A program made the translations under genes and the position numbers. From a virus (lineage: Duplodnaviria; Caudoviricetes), in the IMG/VR virus record IMGVR_UViG_3300048854_000081, positions 32,001 to 96,000 of that record: DNA of 64,000 nucleotides; one strand, written 5' to 3'. How positions within the stretch are numbered: the stretch's first letter is position 1; every line of letters starts with the position of its first letter. Below the pieces are notes generated by a model. That model ran no database searches. It saw nothing but the letters and a program-made list of their open reading frames with translations, and was not told the origin of the DNA. Below are positions 12,327 to 48,819 of this stretch, piece by piece.

Positions 12327-12791
12327 ATGACCGACGTAACCATTCGTAATTTCATGTCTAGCTTGGTGACGAAGCAAGAAGTCTTCGATTTCGTGTGCAC
12401 CAGCTTGATCAATCAGGGTCGTGGTTCGTATGATCCCGAGTTTGGTGATGTGGGCATGTGTCTGTATCGTCATCCGGATGGTGCGAAGTGTGCGGTGGGT
12501 CATATGATCGCCGATGAAGAATACGTCCCGAGAATGGATGGTGTTGGTTGTGGTTCTAATCCTGAAGTCGGAGCCACTGGCGTAATGGAATTGATCCCGA
12601 ACTACTTCCCTGCACTGGTCGGGTCTGCGAGTTATGAGACGGATGTCTACTTTCTTAGGCAGTTGCAGGGTGCTCATGATGACGCTGCGATTCGTAACTT
12701 CAGTCATGACGGATTTGTCGAGGCGTTCAAAAAGAATGTTAAATCGGTTGGTAACACATATGACCTTGACACATCGGTGTTGGGCCTGTAA
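12327..12791 (+). CDS. Paralog family A protein
   Basis: CLYRHPDGAKCAVGHMIADEEY...FLRQLQGAHD. Confidence 0.85.
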   Translation: MTDVTIRNFMSSLVTKQEVFDFVCTSLINQGRGSYDPEFGDVGMCLYRHPDGAKCAVGHMIADEEYVPRMDGVGCGSNPEVGATGVMELIPNYFPALVGSASYETDVYFLRQLQGAHDDAAIRNFSHDGFVEAFKKNVKSVGNTYDLDTSVLGL

Positions 12792-12807
12792 TATAATCTA
12801 ACAATGT

Positions 12808-12894
12808 GGCACTATGGCGGAATTGGTAGACGCAGCAGACTTAAAATCTGCCGGGATTACTCTCGTCCGGGTTCGATTCCCGGTGGTGCTACCA
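12808..12894 (+). tRNA. tRNA-Leu(UAA)
   Basis: GGCACTA/TGGTGCT acceptor, gcaga-cttaaaa-tctgc anticodon arm, long variable arm, GGTTCGATTCC, CCA. Confidence 0.92.
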
Positions 12895-12927
12895 CACATT
12901 GACAGATTTGCTAAATAAACATATCAT

Positions 12928-13004
12928 CCGCCTATGGTCCAACTGGATAGGGCAACGACCTTCTAAGTCGTACGGTGGGGGTTCGAATCCCTCTAGGCGG
13001 ACCA
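12928..13004 (+). tRNA. tRNA-Arg(UCU)
   Basis: CCGCCTA/TAGGCGG acceptor, acgac-cttctaa-gtcgt, GGTTCGAATCC, CCA. Confidence 0.92.
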
Positions 13005-13009
13005 ATTTT

Positions 13010-13098
13010 GGGTAGGTAGCTTAAGTGAGCGAGTCTCACAGGTAAAGCAGCGGAGTCATGACCGTCAATGTGGGTTCGAATCCCATCCCTGCCCGCCA
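13010..13098 (+). tRNA. Atypical tRNA-like gene (CAU in irregular anticodon loop; hairpin inserted in D-loop)
   Basis: GGGTAGG/CCTGCCC acceptor, GGTTCGAATCC, GCCA end; gtgag-cgagt-ctcac inside D-loop. Confidence 0.65.
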
Positions 13099-13105
13099 CT
13101 ATTCT

Positions 13106-13182
13106 AACTCCATCGCCAAGTCCGGTTAAGGCACAGGATTTTGATTCCTGCATCGTAGGTTCGAATCCTACTGGGGTTGCCA
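13106..13182 (+). tRNA. tRNA-Gln(UUG)
   Basis: cagga-ttttgat-tcctg anticodon arm, gtagg-ttcgaat-cctac, GCCA. Confidence 0.9.
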
Positions 13183-17598: not shown

Positions 17599-17660
17599 GT
17601 TTTACAGTTGACAAAGATTAATTAGCAAGTATAATTGATCTGTACTAAATAGATTCACAT

Positions 17661-17737
17661 CGGGGTGTAGCTCAGTCTGGTAGAGCATCTGCTTTGGGAG
17701 CAGAGGGTCGTCGGTTCGAACCCGGCTACCCCGACCA
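17661..17737 (+). tRNA. tRNA-Pro(UGG)
   Basis: CGGGGTGTAGCTCAGTCTGGTAGAGC, tctgc-tttggga-gcaga, CCA. Confidence 0.95.
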
Positions 17738-18423: not shown

Positions 18424-18816
18424 ATGATCACACTTAAGCCCATCCTTAGAGCTAACCGTCGCTGTGAATCCATGGATTCCAATAAGCTTCTGGCTGCACA
18501 GAATAATCGTTGCTTCTACTGTGACGGTAAGTTCCCCGATAGACATACTGGTCCTCTGCGTCTCAGCCGTGATCACCTGTTCCCGCGTTGGTGGGGTCTC
18601 GGTATGGGTGGGAACATGGTCTTCGCTCATGCTCATTGCAACTCACACAAGAACGGTCGCACGCCTACCAATGAAGAGGTGTTGAAGTTCTTCCGCCTCT
18701 ACAAGCAGAATGCTCCTAAGCGCTATTGGGATCGTATCATCCTGTCCACCCGTAACCATAAGCCTCGTTTCAAGCTGGTGATCACTCCGGAATTGATTAG
18801 GGATTACTGCGCATGA
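18424..18816 (+). CDS. HNH endonuclease
   Basis: QNNRCFYCD...SRDHLFPR...NMVFAHAHCNSHK. Confidence 0.85.
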   Translation: MITLKPILRANRRCESMDSNKLLAAQNNRCFYCDGKFPDRHTGPLRLSRDHLFPRWWGLGMGGNMVFAHAHCNSHKNGRTPTNEEVLKFFRLYKQNAPKRYWDRIILSTRNHKPRFKLVITPELIRDYCA

Positions 18817-19205
18817 AAGTCTATCGTATCGAGAATGCATTGGGACAGGGGTTCCTTTACCGTGCCAACTGGACTGATACCTTTGTCCTTCCCGAGGATG
18901 AAGAAGCATATACTAAGGAATGTGGTCAGTGGTTGTCTACAGATAAGCACCAGAGCCCTCCTTATCGTATGGTAGAGCTTGGTCAGGTGTTCGGTTGCCC
19001 TTCACTGGAATATATGGCAGAATGGATCAATCCTAACATTCTGGATATGTTGGAACGTGCTGGGTACAAGGTCTATGTCTACTCGACTAAGCTGCATACC
19101 AAGCATCCCACCAGTCCTAACCAAGTATCATTCAAGAAAAAGAATGCTGTCTTGATCGAAGCATTTCATCTAGACATCCTAAGGAATATTCATGAACCTG
19201 CGTGA
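18813..19205 (+). CDS. Hypothetical protein, paralog of 21009 (possible ART-like fold)
   Basis: MKVYRIE..GQG...FGCPSLEYMAEW...QVSF. Confidence 0.7.
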   Translation: MKVYRIENALGQGFLYRANWTDTFVLPEDEEAYTKECGQWLSTDKHQSPPYRMVELGQVFGCPSLEYMAEWINPNILDMLERAGYKVYVYSTKLHTKHPTSPNQVSFKKKNAVLIEAFHLDILRNIHEPA

Positions 19206-19341
19206 TACTGTTAAAGCTGCGATGCTGTTGCATCCTTCCATCAACAACTCCGTGGTAAGCGTCTACTATCACCTGTTCACCTCAAATGGTACAGGCTATC
19301 AGTGGAACAGTGATGGTGAACTCAAGGCCGAAGAAGGTTAA

Positions 19342-19455
19342 CCTTACGCAAGCGTTAGGACTTCTTTTTCAAACAATGAAGGGAGCCATTAGGCTCCCTT
19401 TTCTATTGGTGAGTACTGTGGGGGATACCCTACCCTTACGCAAGCGTTAGGACTT
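19342..19455. repeat. Two more copies of the 22-bp repeat flanking a terminator hairpin
   Basis: ccttacgcaagcgttaggactt at 19342-19363 and 19434-19455; aagggagcc-atta-ggctccctttt between them. Confidence 0.9.
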
Positions 19456-19890
19456 AATTGGGTCTTCTGCGTATAGGGGTTCTAGGTCTTCGAAGGTGCC
19501 AGCACGATCATAGATCATCGTCCACTCGACGGCTGCATAGATTAGCTCAGTCGGATAGAACTGTCGTGCTGCCTTCGCGATCATGGTACCATAGCCCTTG
19601 CGGCGATGGTCAGGATGGGTGTACACATCCATGGTGAGTATGAATTCACCGTTTAGCAATAGCTGGAACACCATACCCCATGAGAGTACAGTGGGCTCTT
19701 CCAGTCCGTCAGTGATATAGAATACCCTTAGGTCTTTGACCGATGGACTACCCTTTCTCACCCGGTTCAGGATACGGAGCATCCTGCCAGACTTTAGGCC
19801 ACAATTCAAGTCTCTTAACTGTTTCCTAATGTTTCTGTTAAGTGAACTATGTAGTTCAGTAATGACCTCAATTTCACACATCCTTAACAT
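19447..19890 (-). CDS. GNAT-family acetyltransferase
   Basis: VLSWGMV...DVYTHPDHRRKGYGTMI motif A. Confidence 0.85.
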   Translation of the reverse strand: MLRMCEIEVITELHSSLNRNIRKQLRDLNCGLKSGRMLRILNRVRKGSPSVKDLRVFYITDGLEEPTVLSWGMVFQLLLNGEFILTMDVYTHPDHRRKGYGTMIAKAARQFYPTELIYAAVEWTMIYDRAGTFEDLEPLYAEDPIKS

Positions 19891-24844: not shown

Positions 24845-25071
24845 ATTTACCCTATTGCATTCTGTTAGAAAACCTGTAGACTACTTACATCGACTAACCA
24901 AACGGAACCAGCCATGTACGAGTCAGCTAAGAACTTCGCGATGAATCCGGGTAACCCCTACGTTGCCGCTGCGTTCTATGGTGCTGTATGGGCTGGTATC
25001 TATGTGGTGATGTATCAGTGGGTCATCCATCACTAAGCTTGACATTCAAACAATAAGTAGTAAACTGAAAT

Positions 25072-25581
25072 TGTCGTCGGGAACCAATGAGACAATCGAT
25101 GACGGAGCCGAGAGGGAATTAACCCTCACACCTGACCCAGCACTGTAGAACGGCAACAGCCTAATGACTGGGATAGACGATAGGATAGAGCTTATATGTC
25201 CTTACCGCGACGGGTCTTGATGCCAATAAGCTTAGGCATGTAGGTAGGTGGGCTATCACTGAAAAACTTGATGCGGTATCCCTAGAATAAGCCTCTAGGG
25301 CGCTCCACCCCCAGCCCACCATGGCCCCATGGTGCCCTAAATGAACCGAGCGCTCTGCGCCATTTAGACCTTAGTAAAAGTGAGGGTGACATCATGTAGC
25401 GACGCTAACCAAATTTGGATGATGACAAAATTCTGATAAAACTTGACGTTGTAAGGGGCTGTACCAGTCGCCAGTAGCGTGGACAGCAAATTCATCAACT
25501 AACCTAGGTGGCGTGTCATGTAACGTCTCAATTCAGGAGCCCTAGAGGCTATAGAAGCGATACATCATAGACTAAGCGACA
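25072..25581 (+). ncRNA. Candidate large (~510 nt) structured non-coding RNA
   Basis: Promoter TTGACA-N16-TAAACT (25039-25066), no ORF >=60 aa, many helices, terminator right after. Confidence 0.65.
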
Positions 25582-25584
25582 CGG

Positions 25585-25612
25585 AAAGCCCCTTAATAGG
25601 GGCTTTTCTTTT
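25585..25612 (+). terminator. Intrinsic terminator
   Basis: aaagcccc-ttaata-ggggcttt-tctttt. Confidence 0.85.
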
Positions 25613-25684
25613 GTTCAGAATAGGGGGTTGCATCTGTTATCAAACCCTGTATAATGTATTTCAACAACCCAATGGATCGAAGCC

Positions 25685-26050
25685 ATGAACGACTATTCCA
25701 AGTATTACCCGCTGATCGACAAGCTGGCTACGGAAGATTTCGCCCGTCGCCATCCCGGTAACGTTAAGATGGGCTTCTCCAAGCGCATCGACTTTCAAGA
25801 CGGTGGCAAGCTGATCAAGATGGTCAGTGTGGACCTGAACGATGGCGTGGAAAACGAGTATGGTCGTTCGGTCTATGGTTTCATTGTCAAAGAAGACAAT
25901 ACCATCAAGAGCGCGACCACGGGTGCCTTTTTCAAGGCTGGTGACCTGTTGAAGGCCGCAGGCTGGAAGGCTCCCGCAAAGAACTTCGCTCGTGGTAACA
26001 TCCACGACCTGAACGACGACTCCAAGTTGCCCTATACGGGTATCGGTTGA
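25685..26050 (+). CDS. Conserved hypothetical phage protein
   Basis: RSVYGFI...GDLLKAAGWKAPAKNFARGNI. Confidence 0.8.
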   Translation: MNDYSKYYPLIDKLATEDFARRHPGNVKMGFSKRIDFQDGGKLIKMVSVDLNDGVENEYGRSVYGFIVKEDNTIKSATTGAFFKAGDLLKAAGWKAPAKNFARGNIHDLNDDSKLPYTGIG

Positions 26051-27280: not shown

Positions 27281-27378
27281 CCATAAAGCCCCATTGCTGG
27301 GGCTTTTCTTTACGTTACGGTAGCTGTTCCCCATCCGCCAATCTATTTTAATATAACCTACCTGAACGTAACCTGAAT
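27278..27378. repeat. 101-bp cassette (terminator + GGATGGG element copy E + TTCAG box), identical to 35714-35814
   Basis: Base-by-base match of the two stretches. Confidence 0.9.
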
Positions 27379-28890: not shown

Positions 28891-28933
28891 TGGGGTTGAC
28901 AATTAAAATCCCTCCACTATAATGTAATTCATC

Positions 28934-29009
28934 GGGTCGATAGCTCAGTTGGCAGAGCACGGGACTTTTAATCCTGCGGTCGCGGGTTCGAATCCCGCTC
29001 GACCCACCA
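28934..29009 (+). tRNA. tRNA-Lys(UUU)
   Basis: GGGTCGA/TCGACCC acceptor, cggga-cttttaa-tcctg, CCA. Confidence 0.93.
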
Positions 29010-29861: not shown

Positions 29862-30164
29862 ATGCAATTCAATGTTACCGCCCGCATGTATGAGATAACC
29901 ATCGAAGAAAATGAAATGCTGGCTCTCATTCGTGAGGAAGCCTATGATGGTAAACTCTGCGAGAATACGCTATTCGATAAGCTTAAAAAGGTCGATGGCG
30001 TCTCTAACATTGATTACAATGGTCACTTTGGCTCTGCTATCTTCCTGACCATCGATGTTGACAAGGATGACGGTAGCATTGGTAATCCGATTCGTAACAA
30101 GATCGAAAGTATCATCCGTAAGCACCTTGACCGTGCTGTAGGTTACCAGAACAAGAAACGTTGA
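29862..30164 (+). CDS. Hypothetical protein
   Basis: Start MQFNVT after AAAGGA. Confidence 0.7.
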   Translation: MQFNVTARMYEITIEENEMLALIREEAYDGKLCENTLFDKLKKVDGVSNIDYNGHFGSAIFLTIDVDKDDGSIGNPIRNKIESIIRKHLDRAVGYQNKKR

Positions 30165-30198
30165 CATTGAGCTAAATAACCGTATAATAATTGAATCA

Positions 30199-30275
30199 GG
30201 GCGGTTAGCTCAATTGGTTAGAGCAAGCGACTCATAATCGCTGGGTCGGGGGTTCGAATCCCTCACCGCCCACCA
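30199..30275 (+). tRNA. tRNA with CAU anticodon, most likely tRNA-Ile2
   Basis: GGGCGGT/ACCGCCC; agcga-ctcataa-tcgct arm resembles the proteobacterial Ile2 anticodon arm; CCA. Confidence 0.88.
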
Positions 30276-30325
30276 CCATACCAAACCCGATCAGAAATGG
30301 TCGGGTTTTCTTTTACCTCACGGTG

Positions 30326-41986: not shown

Positions 41987-42478
41987 ATGGGAAATCTTCT
42001 TGTGTCCGAAACTAAAAAATTTTTCTGGAAATTTATTCTCATGATTGAATCAAAGCTTTCAATGATCCCTCATCCTATGCTTGGCTTTGGTAGCGCATCA
42101 GTATCCTTTGGTGAGGTTTCGAATGCCACACTATTAAATGATGGTATGGTGGGTTGGGATAATGCTCAGCATGTGATTGGTAAGATCAAGGATGGTTCCT
42201 ATAGAATTTCTCAGGTCTGTCTTATGTTGTATCATATTGTCAGGAATGCGATTCCGGGTGAAAAGGCATTGCCATATTTAAGACTGACTATCACTGACAA
42301 TGCTAAAAACTACATCCATTATTCATTAGCCCGGTATCATATGAAAGGTTACGATGCTGAGCAGATTGCCTTGGTGAATACACTGTTTAGTAAGATTGAA
42401 GATTACATTCAGGTGTCCTTGCATGAGTTTACTCAAGGTCATTTCGATTACATTCCTGTGGAGTTAGACCATGCTTAG
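41987..42478 (+). CDS. Paralog family B protein
   Basis: NTLFSKIEDYIQVSLHEFTQGHFDYI. Confidence 0.8.
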   Translation: MGNLLVSETKKFFWKFILMIESKLSMIPHPMLGFGSASVSFGEVSNATLLNDGMVGWDNAQHVIGKIKDGSYRISQVCLMLYHIVRNAIPGEKALPYLRLTITDNAKNYIHYSLARYHMKGYDAEQIALVNTLFSKIEDYIQVSLHEFTQGHFDYIPVELDHA

Positions 42479-42785
42479 TTATAGACAAAAGATAATTAAT
42501 GAAGTGCGTCAAGGCATCAACCGACGACCATTTACGGGTTTGACTGTGGAGGATGTTGCCAGTATAGTCGAAGAAGTGAAAGATTTCATTGATCCGTTTA
42601 TCGTAAATGTACGTAAGGGTGCCTATAGTGTAGCGTATGTTGAGTTCCATGAGCGCTATCTTAGGAAGAAGTCCAATGGTGATTCGGGTGAGCGTGGTAG
42701 CCAATTAGCTTTTTATTACAAGATTGTGTTGGATGAGGATGGTAATCGTCTTATCGATAAAATTGAGCCCGATTTAAATGAATGA
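42471..42785 (+). CDS. Probable family B member lacking the C-terminal motif
   Basis: GAYSVAYVEF...LAFYYKI resembles the family's N-terminal strands; no IEEFT tail. Confidence 0.6.
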   Translation: MLSYRQKIINEVRQGINRRPFTGLTVEDVASIVEEVKDFIDPFIVNVRKGAYSVAYVEFHERYLRKKSNGDSGERGSQLAFYYKIVLDEDGNRLIDKIEPDLNE

Positions 42786-43137
42786 AGAGATAGCTGAAAG
42801 GATTGCGCATTTACGGAATGATAAGTCGATCAAGGTCTTATCTATTGGCTTACGAAAGGATTTCCATAAGAGTGTAATCAAAAATCTTAGAAAAGGGGTT
42901 CGTGGCAGGGGAATGTTAGAGTGTCGTCAGTTGATTCAAATGTTTTATCAGTATAAAGTCATCAATCCTCATACTCAAAATCCTTATTTTGTATCCGAAA
43001 ATATCTTTTTTGAACAATCTGATATTCCGGTTGATGATCAGGGTGTAGAGGACTATAATTTTTTCCTATCTTATGTAGAAGATTGGTTGGGTGTGAGCAT
43101 TGAAGAATTTACAGAAGGTAGTTTCCATTATGTTTAG
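42778..43137 (+). CDS. Paralog family B protein
   Basis: NFFLSYVEDWLGVSIEEFTEGSFHYV. Confidence 0.8.
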   Translation: MNEEIAERIAHLRNDKSIKVLSIGLRKDFHKSVIKNLRKGVRGRGMLECRQLIQMFYQYKVINPHTQNPYFVSENIFFEQSDIPVDDQGVEDYNFFLSYVEDWLGVSIEEFTEGSFHYV

Positions 43138-43149
43138 TAAAGGTAATTT

Positions 43150-43458
43150 ATGAGAAATGAAACAATATATGGTTCGTTCTTAGATTTTGACAATAATATA
43201 GAAATTTTATATGTCACATTTCGTGAAATAAGATACGGAAAATTCTATGCTGAGGAATTAGGTAAAGAGTCTAATCATTCATTAGAAATTTTCTATAGAA
43301 AAGAGGGCGCAATACCTTCAGACCCAAATTATACTTATCGCATAACTACTGATTCTTCGATCAAAAAAGAATTGTTTAATAAAATTTTGACTGATATAGA
43401 GAATATCATAGAGGAATCCATAACTGTATTCACCCGTGGTCATTTCCATTATATTTAA
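43150..43458 (+). CDS. Paralog family B protein
   Basis: NKILTDIENIIEESITVFTRGHFHYI. Confidence 0.8.
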   Translation: MRNETIYGSFLDFDNNIEILYVTFREIRYGKFYAEELGKESNHSLEIFYRKEGAIPSDPNYTYRITTDSSIKKELFNKILTDIENIIEESITVFTRGHFHYI

Positions 43459-43464
43459 CATCAT

Positions 43465-43857
43465 TTGCCTTCTTTGGGTAGATATCCTACTATAGGGTCT
43501 TCCTCCATGATTATTCGTGCCATGCTACCTAAAGCTACTGTGAAGAATCTTCAAGAGAAGATAGTTGTTGTTTCCAAAAATCAAGTCTTTAAGAATGCGG
43601 CTGGTCCTTTCTTGGAAGCCTTTACTGCTGACAGGGTTGTCATTCGCTATCTAGGGTTTTATGATAAATTTAATACCGTCAGTAACCGTAAGGAACCAGT
43701 GATCCTCATTGAATATACCATGGAAGCTATGGAATGTCGGCTTGAGATTCCTGCACATGCGTGTGAGTTGGATGAATACCGTAGGGTCATTGCTCTGGTG
43801 GAAGATCATGTTGGGCAGTCCATTGAAGAGTTTACCTATGGTCATATGGGAATGTAA
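43465..43857 (+). CDS. Paralog family B protein
   Basis: RRVIALVEDHVGQSIEEFTYGHMGM. Confidence 0.8.
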   Translation: MPSLGRYPTIGSSSMIIRAMLPKATVKNLQEKIVVVSKNQVFKNAAGPFLEAFTADRVVIRYLGFYDKFNTVSNRKEPVILIEYTMEAMECRLEIPAHACELDEYRRVIALVEDHVGQSIEEFTYGHMGM

Positions 43858-43862
43858 ATATA

Positions 43863-44201
43863 ATGATTGGATATACTAAGCCCCATAACAGCGAGTCAGG
43901 TAAATTTGAACCAGATAATGAAATTATCTTTATACAGAAGATTATTGATGGAATAAGTAAGATTCGTGGTGTCGAATATACTAGTTCATTTGCCTATGAA
44001 TGGTATTTCCCCATGGTTATTCCTCGCCATACGTTAGTGATCAATCTTCTGGTAGATGATAATATACTAAATTATTACCTGCCTAACACAATTGATCGTA
44101 TCCATATGCCTCTGGTCAATCAGCTTTATAGTAAGATTGAGAATGTGATTGACATGTCTATTGAAGAATTCACACACGGCAAGTTTTATTATGACCAATA
44201 A
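43863..44201 (+). CDS. Paralog family B protein
   Basis: NQLYSKIENVIDMSIEEFTHGKFYY. Confidence 0.8.
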   Translation: MIGYTKPHNSESGKFEPDNEIIFIQKIIDGISKIRGVEYTSSFAYEWYFPMVIPRHTLVINLLVDDNILNYYLPNTIDRIHMPLVNQLYSKIENVIDMSIEEFTHGKFYYDQ

Positions 44202-44508
44202 TGTAATAGTACAGCCTACTGAAGCCGAAATAATTGATAATGCAATTTCCGGTGTTTACAGACCACGAAGTTCCGAGATTTCAAGAGTGGTTAATGTTGG
44301 ATACGGTGAAGATTATCATGTACTGAAAATATTATTTTGGGAAGATATTCAACCCACAGGTCGGAGAATTAGACGGGTGATCCTCAAAACAAAGCATGAT
44401 ACCGAGTTGAGTAATGAGAAGCACAATAAGCTTATTGCGTTGGTTGAAGATACGACACGGATGCCCATTGCTGAATTTACGCAGGGTGTCTTCGGATATA
44501 AACATTAA
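44191..44508 (+). CDS. Paralog family B protein
   Basis: NKLIALVEDTTRMPIAEFTQGVFGY. Confidence 0.8.
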   Translation: MTNNVIVQPTEAEIIDNAISGVYRPRSSEISRVVNVGYGEDYHVLKILFWEDIQPTGRRIRRVILKTKHDTELSNEKHNKLIALVEDTTRMPIAEFTQGVFGYKH

Positions 44509-44524
44509 TTAAGGAAATTGATTG

Positions 44525-44866
44525 ATGAAATATCAATTTTTAGAAGAAATAGAAGATACTGCCCTCAGTATTATTGAAGGAAAGATACGTGTTAGATTCA
44601 TTGATCAAGTAAATTCTTTTAATCCTGATTCAGTTGTCACGGAACCTGCGTTTACCTTGCAGTTATTTTTAGCGAATAAAAATAACAACAACGATGCCAC
44701 GTATAATGTATTAGAAATTGAAAATAATTCATGGAAAAATAATCTAACTAAATCAACATTCAATAAATTGCTAGCAGTTGTAGAGGATTTAACCGGAATA
44801 TCTATTCATGAACTTACAAAAGGTCAGATAGATTATGTTGAGATTGCAAAAGATGACCAATTATGA
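44525..44866 (+). CDS. Paralog family B protein
   Basis: NKLLAVVEDLTGISIHELTKGQIDYV. Confidence 0.8.
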   Translation: MKYQFLEEIEDTALSIIEGKIRVRFIDQVNSFNPDSVVTEPAFTLQLFLANKNNNNDATYNVLEIENNSWKNNLTKSTFNKLLAVVEDLTGISIHELTKGQIDYVEIAKDDQL

Positions 44867-45372
44867 ACATGTTTAAAAAATTTATCTACAAATTAATGAT
44901 TAAATGGTTTCCGGATGATATTCGTGTACCATTACCAGATATCAGAAACAATCCGAACAGTCAATTGTATCAAGGTGATGCTCAGTTGGATGCTGACGCT
45001 GAAATGTTGAACGTAATTCGAATGATCGAAGGCAATAAAACGAAAATTACTGCAATCACTTATACTAAATCTGATACTTCAGGTAATTTTGCTAAATCTA
45101 ATAGTTCAGGTAATTTTGGTCCAGTAGGTTGGGGATATTTTGTAGTCCATAACCTTGAAATACATTATGCAGTTGGAGACCCTACTTCAATATTGTATAA
45201 TACGAAGGGTATGGTTAAATTAACTTCTAGAGTTAATAAATTTGGTGATGACACGCTCCCATCGAATGACGATATCACCCGTGATACTTACAATAGAATG
45301 TTGGAAATTTTAGAAAATATCCTTGACATGCCTATTGAAGACTTTACCGAAGCCAAATTCTTCTATATCTAA
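44863..45372 (+). CDS. Paralog family B protein
   Basis: NRMLEILENILDMPIEDFTEAKFFYI. Confidence 0.8.
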   Translation: MNMFKKFIYKLMIKWFPDDIRVPLPDIRNNPNSQLYQGDAQLDADAEMLNVIRMIEGNKTKITAITYTKSDTSGNFAKSNSSGNFGPVGWGYFVVHNLEIHYAVGDPTSILYNTKGMVKLTSRVNKFGDDTLPSNDDITRDTYNRMLEILENILDMPIEDFTEAKFFYI

Positions 45373-45451
45373 TCTGTACCTTAACGGGTGAATCTGAAGT
45401 GATTGACACGTTCTCCACAATTAGATAGAATTGCTATCCTTGGAGAAACAT

Positions 45452-46033
45452 ATGTCCCTAACGTATTACGACAATAACAATAGTTCACTTGCAGGTATAT
45501 TGGACACTGGCGATTTGAGAGAACCCATTACCGACGACACACTCGACATGCGTGCTGTCACTGCTCTTGACAATATCATAAAAGAATTAATTACGTTTCA
45601 TGAAACAAAACCCGGATGGAGCTTGGGTGGTACTCCATTAAATCTAGAGTATGGTGAAACTCTTTTACTTAAAAAGAAGTTTGAAAATGGAAACACGGTT
45701 ATTGTCGGTATCACTTCTCCCTATTTCTATTTTCCATCCCAGCGAACCATGATTTATTTTGATGGTAAGATTAAGGAAGATACTGGTAAGATGTCAGTAG
45801 CTCAAATTTCTCAGAATGGTGAAAAGATATTCTTTACATCAAGTAAGATGCAGACCCAAGACGGTGCTCTCCCATTATCGGTCAAGGGTATTACCTCAAT
45901 GTACGAGGTCGAGTCCATGCAGACCACATTGAAAGAGTTACACCAAAAATGTACGACGATATTTTCCCTTATTGAAGATATCTATGAAAAATCCATTGAA
46001 GACATTACCTCCAACATCATCACCCAAGGTTAA
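45452..46033 (+). CDS. Divergent family B protein
   Basis: TTIFSLIEDIYEKSIEDITSNII. Confidence 0.7.
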   Translation: MSLTYYDNNNSSLAGILDTGDLREPITDDTLDMRAVTALDNIIKELITFHETKPGWSLGGTPLNLEYGETLLLKKKFENGNTVIVGITSPYFYFPSQRTMIYFDGKIKEDTGKMSVAQISQNGEKIFFTSSKMQTQDGALPLSVKGITSMYEVESMQTTLKELHQKCTTIFSLIEDIYEKSIEDITSNIITQG

Positions 46034-46041
46034 GTAGTATC

Positions 46042-46428
46042 ATGCAGTTGAACACCCTTCCACAGAAGAGCACCATTCCAGTTGATATTGCTTTTCATGA
46101 TTATGTAACTTCTACAAGTCCGAAGGATATTTGTAAAGACATAGTGTTTGGTAATCATTATTATGTTGCAGGGGATAATACAATGAATGTATCCCCTGCC
46201 ATTATCATCCGTGGTGATTTCTCTATTTTTCTTACTTTTGTTGAAGATATGGACAAGAGTGTCACTGTCGTAGTCAATCCATCGGATTGTGACGATGGTA
46301 AGATGACTTTCATGTCATTGGATGATAACCTCAAGGCTGACCTTAACCTTCTATTCTCTTTGGTAGAGAACTTCATGAATCATCCTATTACCTATATAAC
46401 CAATAACTTATTCGATTACTATGTTTAA
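46042..46428 (+). CDS. Divergent family B protein
   Basis: NLLFSLVENFMNHPITYITNNLFDY. Confidence 0.7.
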   Translation: MQLNTLPQKSTIPVDIAFHDYVTSTSPKDICKDIVFGNHYYVAGDNTMNVSPAIIIRGDFSIFLTFVEDMDKSVTVVVNPSDCDDGKMTFMSLDDNLKADLNLLFSLVENFMNHPITYITNNLFDYYV

Positions 46429-46903
46429 GGATGTCTACAAGACCTTCCAAGATCAGTTTTTGTCCGAATTCCAGACAGCCTTACCAGAGGTAAGTCCTAC
46501 TAAACCTATATCTGCTCAGCAAATCATAGCCAATCTAAATGCTGTGATGAGCACCGTCAGTACCGGTTATGATAACCAAATCAATGCAAAACCGCTCATT
46601 AAGCAGTTTTTGGACTTCAAAATCACGTCTATTACCCTTAAAATGAAGGTTAGCAAGAACATAAGCTTCGTTAAGCCTATACATACTTACTATACTATTG
46701 ATATTGGTCCGTTCACACTCAACACAGGTGGAAGTGAGGAAGGATTTCGTCGCTTACAGAAGATTAGGTCAACTAACTTCGATTACAACTACACGTTCAA
46801 TGGTGGTGAGGTTGAAGCCAGTCTACTAAAAAAGTTTGATGAGATTATTGCCAATGTTGAAGATATTATGGAAGATTTTTGGGAAAACATCCTTACGATG
46901 TAA
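46421..46903 (+). CDS. Most divergent family B-like protein
   Basis: DEIIANVEDIMEDFWENILTM. Confidence 0.55.
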   Translation: MFKDVYKTFQDQFLSEFQTALPEVSPTKPISAQQIIANLNAVMSTVSTGYDNQINAKPLIKQFLDFKITSITLKMKVSKNISFVKPIHTYYTIDIGPFTLNTGGSEEGFRRLQKIRSTNFDYNYTFNGGEVEASLLKKFDEIIANVEDIMEDFWENILTM

Positions 46904-46907
46904 ATCT

Positions 46908-47654
46908 ATGAAGTTCATTAAACTAATAAAAAAGAAAATAAAAATGATTAAAGATAAAAACACATTCAGAGATACGATGTACGATTATGCTAATATAAAT
47001 GAGTATTTCTCATTTTATGGCAACGTAATTTATATCTCGACCGATTACTATCACGGTAATGATTACTTTTTGGTTCTAAAGCGTGACACCAAGTACGCCT
47101 TGGTAACGATTAACCAAGAAGAAATCCAATATTACTTTGGGTTAAAGAACAGAGACAACATTACTCGCGATTTGGATACACTGTACGCGAAGCTTGAGTT
47201 CGTTGAAGGGTTACATAATTTTCGTAGAAAGCTGGATTGGTATCTATTGAATGTATTCTTCAACGAGAAGTCACGCTTCGAACTGATCAAGATTAAGAAT
47301 TCTGATCTAGTTCTATGGAATTTCATTCTGGTTGAGAATGTAATCAACAATAATAGACGTGACAAGACGATTGCTACCAAACTTATTACCCATGAATCCA
47401 GACAGCTTAACCCAAGTCTCCACCTGTCCTTCGTTCATACTGTAAATGTTTACAATACTCAGTTCACGGTAGACTATGATTGGGTGGAAGGTAATGCCTT
47501 CGTGGATGTTACTATCTACCATTTTAATTATAAATCTAAGCGTAGACTTAACTTGTTTGACATTTCGGAGTTAAATGCCGTATTATCGGTCATGTCACTT
47601 GGTGATGATTACAAAACACTAGAATATCTTGAGGGTTTCATTTTAAATGTCTGA
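46908..47654 (+). CDS. Hypothetical protein
   Basis: Track ORF 46836..47654; likely start MKFIK. Confidence 0.7.
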   Translation: MKFIKLIKKKIKMIKDKNTFRDTMYDYANINEYFSFYGNVIYISTDYYHGNDYFLVLKRDTKYALVTINQEEIQYYFGLKNRDNITRDLDTLYAKLEFVEGLHNFRRKLDWYLLNVFFNEKSRFELIKIKNSDLVLWNFILVENVINNNRRDKTIATKLITHESRQLNPSLHLSFVHTVNVYNTQFTVDYDWVEGNAFVDVTIYHFNYKSKRRLNLFDISELNAVLSVMSLGDDYKTLEYLEGFILNV

Positions 47655-48819
47655 CATCGTTTATAACTACACCAATGAATCGGCTGGTACAACCCACTCA
47701 TTCATGAACGAATATGCGTTTTCATCTATAACAGGTGCTAATTTCAGTCATGTAAAACGTTATTCATTCGATGCGAATGGTAAAGTCAGCATGGATCAAA
47801 TCATGAGTTTGATCAATCCTTTGATCGATAAATTCAATTATGATAGGGTTATTTCATCCGCAGTTCGTGGTTTAGATTATAGTGATTACGAACAGGATGA
47901 CGAAGAGTTAGCCGAAACATCACTTACCGAAGATTATTTGGAATATGTTTATCTATTCTCAACTTCAAAGACTGTTGCAGTTAGCATCAATTTCTTCGGT
48001 GGTGGTAGCAATTATCTACAGTTGAATGTAGTTTGTCAGAAACATGATGTGGAATTGGCTGCTAGTACGTTCGAAGCCTTCTATGAAGTGATCACTTCAC
48101 TGAAAAAGCCTTCTGAAGAGAAAAGCAAAGTCAATTTCATTTGTCAGTCTGGTGCTGGTGGTTTGTACTTGAGTGAGCTTGAGCTACGAAAGGACAATAC
48201 TTTCGACCTAAATGCTCATTATAACGATGATTTCGTTCCTATTTCAGAACATATCATCGAATCACTCAATAAAAAGCGTGGTAAGGGCATCGTATTCTTG
48301 CATGGTAAGCACGGTACAGGTAAAACCACCTATCTACGTCACCTGATCCATAGCTTGAAGAAGAATGTGATCTACGTTTCACCTGATATGAGTGCTAGAG
48401 TATCGGAGCCTTCGTTCCTAACATTCCTCATGAAGCACAAAAATAGCGTTTTGATCATCGAAGATGCTGAAAACGTAATCAAAACTCGTGAAGCAGGTGA
48501 AAATCAAGCAGTTTCTAACCTATTGAACATCACTGATGGTATTTTGGGTGATGGTTTGAACTTCCAGATCATTTGTACCTTCAATACGGGCTTCGATAAC
48601 ATCGATCCAGCATTGAAGCGCAAGGGAAGAATGATTGCTCAATACGAATTCGGTAATCTATCTCGTGAGAAGACCTCAAATCTCGTTAAAGAGACCTACG
48701 GTTCAGAAGTTTTACCATTGCATTCGGAAATGTCACTTGCTGAAATCTTCAATATGCAAGAAGACAACTTTGAAAAGGTAGTTGCAAAACGAGCTATCGG
48801 CTTCACAGCTTCACTATAA
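47647..48819 (+). CDS. AAA+ ATPase
   Basis: Walker A GKHGTGKT, Walker B LIIEDAE, LLNITDG, TFN, DPALKRKGR arginine-finger region. Confidence 0.92.
   Translation: MSDIVYNYTNESAGTTHSFMNEYAFSSITGANFSHVKRYSFDANGKVSMDQIMSLINPLIDKFNYDRVISSAVRGLDYSDYEQDDEELAETSLTEDYLEYVYLFSTSKTVAVSINFFGGGSNYLQLNVVCQKHDVELAASTFEAFYEVITSLKKPSEEKSKVNFICQSGAGGLYLSELELRKDNTFDLNAHYNDDFVPISEHIIESLNKKRGKGIVFLHGKHGTGKTTYLRHLIHSLKKNVIYVSPDMSARVSEPSFLTFLMKHKNSVLIIEDAENVIKTREAGENQAVSNLLNITDGILGDGLNFQIICTFNTGFDNIDPALKRKGRMIAQYEFGNLSREKTSNLVKETYGSEVLPLHSEMSLAEIFNMQEDNFEKVVAKRAIGFTASL

Follow-up and report, generated by a model that had tools for sequence, protein, structure and literature searches.

A promoter-to-terminator unit upstream of a DUF7717-like early gene: a candidate expanded leader RNA around a conserved start-stop box

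Here we describe a self-contained, ORF-free unit, bounded by a promoter and a terminator, in a 350,036-bp IMG/VR virus record, and suggest from its sequence that it is an expanded, terminator-ended leader RNA of ~540 nt belonging to a DUF7717-like early gene, with a start-stop box as its core. This is the reading that we prefer, although we hold it tentatively; most likely, the unit is not an autonomous, conserved large RNA gene. The initial annotation had proposed an unrecognised structured RNA gene of about 510 nt at the symmetry axis of polar GGATGGG elements. Its physical description of the unit was correct and the feature is real, but the interpretation was over-read, and there is little support for a large structured RNA gene placed on a symmetry axis. 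The analysis was computational, and the transcript is a predicted one. Throughout, the window is the whole stretch of 64,000 nucleotides analysed (bases 32001-96000 of the record).

The proteins of this phage are ~40% identical to those of the Xanthomonas jumbo phages XacN1 and Xoo-sp13 and the Stenotrophomonas phages RAS14 and CM1. Its unit lies among densely packed, small, plus-strand genes of early type, in a region with many consensus sigma70-type promoters and with tRNA genes in between, and begins 2 bases past the stop of a 40-aa hydrophobic ORF (24914-25036). The gene-dense setting noted initially is borne out by the surrounding stretch without an ORF of at least 60 aa (24845-25660, 816 nt); of the 17 such gaps in the 350-kb genome, only one is longer. 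Within 25039-25612 there is no ATG, GTG or TTG ORF of that length on either strand, and each of the six frames is interrupted by stops, the longest stop-to-stop stretch (69 aa) being on the minus strand. The GC content of the unit (0.47) is similar to that of its surroundings; elsewhere in the window a sharp compositional boundary within the phage takes GC from ~0.50 to ~0.36 across 6 kb (42000-48000). The features of the unit and its downstream gene are as follows, all on the plus strand.

25039..25066, plus strand: sigma70-type promoter TTGACA-16 bases-TAAACT (-35 at 25039-25044, -10 at 25061-25066; 10/12 consensus matches)
near 25073, plus strand: transcription start predicted from the promoter consensus
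25073..25103, plus strand: 5' hairpin GUCGUCGG/UCGAUGAC, 8 pairs with a 15-nt loop (mean pair probability 0.58)
25106..25254, plus strand: predicted branched domain (no homologues found) closed by AGCC/GGCU and CACCUG/UAGGUG
25106..25254, plus strand: hairpins GAGGG/CCCUC and CCCAG/CUGGG of the ensemble fold, inside the branched domain
25106..25254, plus strand: the pair GATAGAGCTT...GGCTATCAC, inside the branched domain and also found in the 13-kb unit described below
25290..25301, plus strand: 5' arm of a perfect 12-bp long-range helix (partner 25539-25550; probability 0.81)
25317..25385, plus strand: three stable hairpins in series, CACCAUG/CAUGGUG, CUAAAUG/CAUUUAG (with a GCGC/GCGC tip) and CCUUA/UGAGG (probability 0.85-0.98)
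25382..25399, plus strand: first SD-like site with a one-codon ORF, GAGGGTGA, four bases, ATG (25394) and TAG, the predicted partner of the conserved box
25506..25523, plus strand: conserved 18-nt box AGGTGGCGTGTCATGTAA, with SD-like AGGTG, ATG at 25518 and TAA at 25521 (17/18 identical in relatives L037, L038 and L039)
25539..25550, plus strand: 3' arm of the 12-bp long-range helix, aligning with TTGAGATGAT of the relatives' units
25583..25612, plus strand: intrinsic terminator, an 11-pair GC-rich stem (25583-25608) with a UAAU loop and a U-run (pair probability 0.95-1.0)
25628..25655, plus strand: second promoter TTGCAT-16 bases-TATAAT, for the downstream gene, read by eye from the sequence
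25685..26050, plus strand: 121-aa DUF7717-like early gene, the gene linked to the unit in relatives

The promoter and the terminator reported initially are thus both present, and the terminator is the predicted 3' end of the RNA. The second promoter falls under the threshold of the promoter scan, with a -35 hexamer matching at 3/6 positions. Inside the unit, a vestige-like TTGACG at 25443 stands without a -10 element. The early region has several terminators of the AAAGCCCC-loop-GGGGCTTT type (window 27285-27306 and 25583-25608; genome 59285 and 67721), so that terminator matches dominate every weak blast result for the unit.

The case for a leader rests on the orthologous slot in related phages, which was located through the closest relatives of the downstream DUF7717-like protein. 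Its occupancy, with the identity of that protein, is as follows.

L020 and L022 (54% and 53% identity): gene starts 40 nt after another gene, without the unit
L062, L063 and L077: small genes directly before the gene, without the unit
L076 (47%): homologous small membrane ORF, then the GCTTGACA promoter, a 45-nt leader and the gene
L037 and L038/L039 (47-48%): promoter-to-terminator unit of ~175 nt before the gene
P0004 (50%): gene calls only, which leave no space for the unit

The unit is missing in six relatives (five by sequence, one from gene calls only), and six related genes that do without it indicate that it is dispensable. The units of ~175 nt have three things in common with that of the window: the promoter with its 5' end (GCTTGACATT, TAAnCT and GAAAT, common to the window and L037/L038), the box and the terminator. 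The distance from the 5' end to the box is 45 nt in these relatives versus 425 nt in the window phage. Together, the common elements and these two distances argue that the DUF7717-like gene was ancestrally served by the promoter at 25039; in L076 the same GCTTGACA as in the window, just after the stop of the small membrane ORF, drives the gene directly. The ~425 nt unique to the window phage, which include the second SD-ATG-TAG site and the perfect 12-bp long-range helix, would then be a lineage-specific graft between an old promoter and its gene, in which only the short box appears visibly constrained.

Homologues of the interior itself, whose collection the initial annotation had called for, were sought in the INPHARED phages by blastn or nhmmer, in the phage's own genome, in the whole XacN1, Xoo-sp13 and RAS14 records, and in all relatives examined together with the scan's own index; each search returned nothing beyond terminator matches. 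Unannotated gaps of 500-870 nt do occur in the early regions of relatives (L022:9601-10247, L020:9619-10120, L010 (XacN1):17221-17789, and L009 (Xoo-sp13):4518-5387 and 18816-19534). By blastn, those of L022, L020, XacN1 and Xoo-sp13 bear no resemblance to the unit; they may hold other orphan RNAs.

The box, AGGTGRCGTGTCATGTAA, consists of an SD-like AGGTG(A/G), six bases, ATG and then immediately TAA. In the window, L037, L038 and L039 it is 17/18 identical and precedes the gene's ATG by 161-179 nt; only three independent sequences carry it, and its flanks are ~50-60% identical. The spacer is as strongly conserved as the SD and the ATG, and the sole variable position is A or G, compatible with pairing to U. 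In the phage genome the box is a lone copy, and no site there is complementary to it at up to 4 mismatches. SD-like sequences 4-9 nt before an ATG that is followed at once by a stop occur twice in the unit, at ATG 25394-TAG and ATG 25518-TAA; at least two such sites within 574 nt have a probability of 0.002 in shuffles, and genome-wide such sites are not enriched. Beyond the relatives, the box pattern had 0 matches in viral contigs and 21 chance matches in metagenome contigs, 0 of them adjoining a DUF7717 gene. One metagenome match (L050, 27/31 bases) was dismissed as coincidence; it is on a contig of ~75% GC with a GTGACGT-N10-ACGTCAC palindrome. The box presumably resembles the RegA SELEX site; a T4 RegA-type repressor was discarded as its binder, since a RegA homologue is absent from the phage genome. 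A Y-RNA-like WCNGCAAC motif was likewise set aside, being at chance level (12 found versus 14.7 expected) and in the wrong register.

What exceeds chance in this RNA is the unit as such and not its overall folding. With its terminator, the 543-nt RNA folds with a z-score of -2.26 against shuffles, whereas the 511-nt body without it reaches -1.12, and 11/100 shuffles fold as well. Sliding 120-nt windows are strongly negative (z -3 to -5) only where they cover the terminator, and lie at about -2 over 25250-25400. Within the ensemble fold, which has a 20-pair long-range closure and several very stable hairpins, the dominant element is the perfect 12-bp helix formed by 25290-25301 and 25539-25550, which lie 237 nt apart; only 0.6% of shuffles contain a perfect inverted repeat of at least 12. 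The inverted similarity between 25290-25425 and 25492-25550 is matched by 1/1000 shuffles, and in part the ~425 nt that separate the 5' end from the box resemble the box region in inverted form. The segment 25388-25425 is predicted to pair with 25492-25527, opposing both start-stop sites in one irregular helix. Facing the other site in this way, the box would be masked; its unpaired probability in the predicted ensemble is 0.26.

All of the complementary segments listed as helices in the initial annotation exist, but only some are likely in the ensemble fold. Besides the 5' hairpin GUCGUCGG/UCGAUGAC, GAGGG/CCCUC (0.99), CCCAG/CUGGG (0.89) and CUAAAUG/CAUUUAG (0.96) are retained. The proposed ccctaga/tctaggg and gacgttg/taacgtc helices and the closure of 5' tgtcgt with 3' gcgaca have probabilities of about zero, all three being outcompeted by better alternatives, and ggtgggct/agcccacc is missing from the maximum-expected-accuracy fold. 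Several of these helices are lost because they compete with the 12-bp helix and the 25388-25425/25492-25527 pairing.

From the consensus signals, we envisage that host sigma70 RNA polymerase would start near 25073, at the ancestral promoter of the DUF7717-like gene, that most transcripts would end at the terminator (25583-25612) to give a non-coding RNA of ~540 nt, and that the gene itself would be served by the second promoter and any read-through. The functional core would be what is common with the 175-nt units, namely the promoter with its 5' end, the 18-nt box and the terminator. The box probably acts at the RNA level, the likeliest mode being the docking of a 30S or 70S ribosome on the untranslated leader, which could alter how stable the leader is, how often transcription reads through into the gene, or how many initiating ribosomes are available. 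Because of this inverted resemblance within the ~425 nt, the predicted fold hides the box opposite the second SD-ATG-TAG, inside the domain closed by the perfect 12-bp helix; the expansion may modulate access to the box or may be neutral. Ribosome docking is the favoured mechanism, but we regard it as rather doubtful. Since most of the box is paired in the predicted ensemble, it is not evident how a ribosome would reach it, and a bare ribosome site would have no need of a spacer conserved to the same degree as the SD and the ATG. The only comparative hint that the leader family acts as RNA comes from the relatives, whose 175-nt unit folds with a z-score of -3.7: all four differences between L037 and L038 in a 7-bp hairpin preserve pairing, amounting to one compensatory and two wobble changes. 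A pattern scan for the 20-mer of that hairpin gave 0 matches. More speculatively, and with little confidence, one could imagine a small, undescribed family of jumbo-phage leader RNAs built around an SD-AUG-UAA site, engaging host ribosomes without making a peptide, with the 425-nt extension making access conditional; such leaders might gate read-through into the DUF7717-like gene or hold initiating ribosomes early in infection.

The preferred reading has to be weighed against the possibility that the unit is a neutral spacer, debris from cassette recombination, inverted duplication and gene loss that is transcribed and terminated as an RNA without function, with the box kept for a DNA-level reason (for example as a protein-binding site) or by recent common descent. 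We consider this somewhat unlikely. It would accommodate the leader lengths of 0, 45, 175 and 540 nt in the orthologous slot, an interior that has no homologue and folds much like shuffles, and the vestiges of other signals, which include the TTGACG at 25443 and short repeats common to another unit. A DNA-level role would also suit the short inverted repeat TGAC-GT-GTCA that the relatives hold in their box, but this is broken in the window (TGGC-GT-GTCA), and a box present as a single copy in the genome is not a repeated operator. The spacer reading is further opposed by the retention of the box across genes only 47-48% identical while its flanks diverged, by the perfect 12-bp helix and the two start-stop sites, each unlikely by chance, and by the failure to find protein remnants: neither tblastx nor Pfam/PHROG scans of all stop-to-stop frames gave a match, and a decayed gene was rejected.

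It is improbable that the unit is a trans-acting, sRNA-like regulator, with the box as a seed for a host or phage mRNA and the terminator and U-tail as a chaperone handle. Bacterial and phage sRNAs typically combine, as the unit does, a single short conserved block with a variable body and an intrinsic terminator, and the relatives have an AU-rich stretch between box and terminator. Against this, the phage genome offers no complementary site at up to 4 mismatches, the box is SD-like and not anti-SD-like, and ~540 nt is long for the class. An exact scan of bacterial genome contigs for the 18-mer returned only 3 matches, in unrelated genomes, and no target was found.

A large, compact RNA of a new family, comparable to ROOL or GOLLD and acting as a structured particle, is the reading closest to the initial annotation, and we judge it quite improbable. 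Its length, its phage setting, the tRNA genes 3-5 kb away, and the stable hairpins and long-range closure of the ensemble fold are in its favour. However, cmscan against Rfam 15, whose family models include ROOL (RF03087) and GOLLD (RF01998), gave only tRNAs for the window at gathering score and, for the region of the unit with E up to 10, only terminator-like noise, the best match scoring 21.9 bits against a cut-off of 60. The initial annotation's expectation that no known Rfam family would match, ROOL and GOLLD included, was thus confirmed, but the idea of one conserved, highly structured 510-nt RNA gene fares badly: the interior is missing from every relative examined, homologous units are 175 nt long or absent, and the body, once its terminator is removed, folds no better than shuffles.

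At the level of the genome, the symmetry axis carries no meaning. Plain GGATGGG shows neither polarity nor enrichment (19 copies on the plus strand and 22 on the minus strand genome-wide, with ~21 expected per strand). The local copies are the downstream part of a promoter-like motif, TAAAATAG-N6-GGATGGG, often behind TTCAGGT-type boxes, which is found in the window at these positions.

10510, 19980, 20914 and 24347, plus strand: TAAAATAG-N6-GGATGGG copies
27323, 30327, 35766, 36594, 37143 and 40861, minus strand: TAAAATAG-N6-GGATGGG copies

Full-motif copies occupy the plus strand as far as 24361 and the minus strand from 27330 onwards, which locates the strand switch only to a 3-kb interval of five genes and leaves the proposed axis loose; the minus-strand copies point against the plus-strand genes. 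The motif also occurs in the relative L076 (186-216) and is therefore conserved beyond the window phage. A replication origin or primer transcript at this axis is very improbable, for although the region is ORF-free and promoter-fed and the motif points towards the interval from both sides, the cumulative GC skew reaches its global minimum at 145 kb without any extremum at 57 kb, where the unit lies, the unit has no iterons, tandem repeats or AT-rich tracts and a GC content like that of its surroundings, a strong terminator ends the transcript, and the strand switch is placed no more closely than 3 kb.

Several known classes were also considered and rejected. ARAGORN finds neither a tRNA nor a tmRNA in the unit. 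A type III toxin-antitoxin system of the ToxIN kind would need a tandem repeat array, and 25039-25612 has no tandem repeats, only short two-copy repeats; the downstream protein is not ToxN-like. A leader-peptide attenuator is contradicted by ORFs of one codon only and by the candidate antiterminator (25452-25471 with 25576-25595), which has an ensemble probability of about zero and no counterpart in relatives.

The downstream 121-aa protein is a diverged member of DUF7717 (a weak DUF7717 match only). DUF7717-like proteins are widespread, with 1359 representatives at E of at most 0.001, and have an invariant GDLLKAAxWKAPAKNFARGN motif; a confident model of the fold (pLDDT 93) has no PDB match.

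A second ORF-free, promoter-to-terminator unit of ~300 nt lies outside the window, at G000:C1:13218-13565 (L032:419-766). This 13-kb unit holds the sole other genomic copy of the 10-mer GATAGAGCTT, again followed by GGCTATCAC and an A-run; its body has a z-score of -0.65 and no match in phage records. Paralogy of the two units was rejected because the alignment is not robust (0-47/300 shuffles reach its score, depending on gap costs), and the GATAGAGCTT-N5-35-GGCTATCAC pattern found only unrelated coding DNA in viral contigs. Further ORF-free gaps of 700-770 nt (G000:C1:7729-8432 and 179379-180149) have no Rfam match at E of at most 0.1, and those at G000:C1:961-1808 and 201397-201922 are tRNA clusters. 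Most tRNA genes of the phage have their own TTGACA/TATAAT-type promoter, with a -35 starting ~30-55 nt upstream (tRNA transcription units at window 12766-13182, 17608-17737, 28896-29009 and 30161-30308), and tRNA-Met also has its own terminator; transcription units of a single RNA are therefore common in the region.

Jumbo phages have many unexplained ORF-free transcription units, and the comparison of relatives makes one of them readable. If its box binds ribosomes, the unit would represent, in a phage, a one-codon start-stop regulator that is conserved and lies in a non-coding leader, whereas the start-stop sites documented so far are mostly within genes of E. coli. Should the box not bind them, the unit would be a useful negative control, a reminder that a long, hairpin-rich stretch from promoter to terminator is not by itself evidence for a ROOL/GOLLD-like RNA.

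Among known systems, terminator-containing leaders (attenuators and riboswitches) and ToxIN have the same layout of promoter, non-coding RNA, intrinsic terminator and protein gene, but the unit differs from them in having no sensing leader peptide, Rfam aptamer or tandem repeats, in the second promoter after its terminator, and in a protein that is not ToxN-like. With ROOL and GOLLD it has in common its size class, occurrence in a phage and nearby tRNA genes; unlike them, it has no covariance-model match and its interior is not conserved. Like phage morons, it is an insert with its own promoter and terminator that is present or absent in the same slot among relatives, but it carries no protein-coding gene, and its promoter appears not to have been imported but to be ancestral to the next gene.

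The jumbo phage PA5oct provides a closer parallel in its orphan ncRNAs ncRNA001-004, of 236-619 nt (PMC7318152). These are likewise ORF-free stretches of a few hundred nt in a jumbo phage that relies on host RNA polymerase and, like the interior of the unit, have no similarity to any known sequence. The PA5oct RNAs were defined by RNA-seq, whereas the unit is predicted, and the unit, unlike them, can be linked with a single downstream gene and with a conserved 18-nt box. For the box itself, the nearest counterparts are the operational start-stop sites of E. coli, as in yecJ/hslR (bioRxiv 10.1101/520783), and minigenes, whose effects have been reviewed for lambda bar and synthetic examples (PMC2490762). 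Like the box, these have an SD-like motif and an ATG with a stop at once; ribosomes bind to such sites, which can affect expression. Those of E. coli are located within genes, and a minigene includes one sense codon or more, whereas the box is a predicted site in a terminated, non-coding leader, and it differs from both in being conserved together with its spacer.
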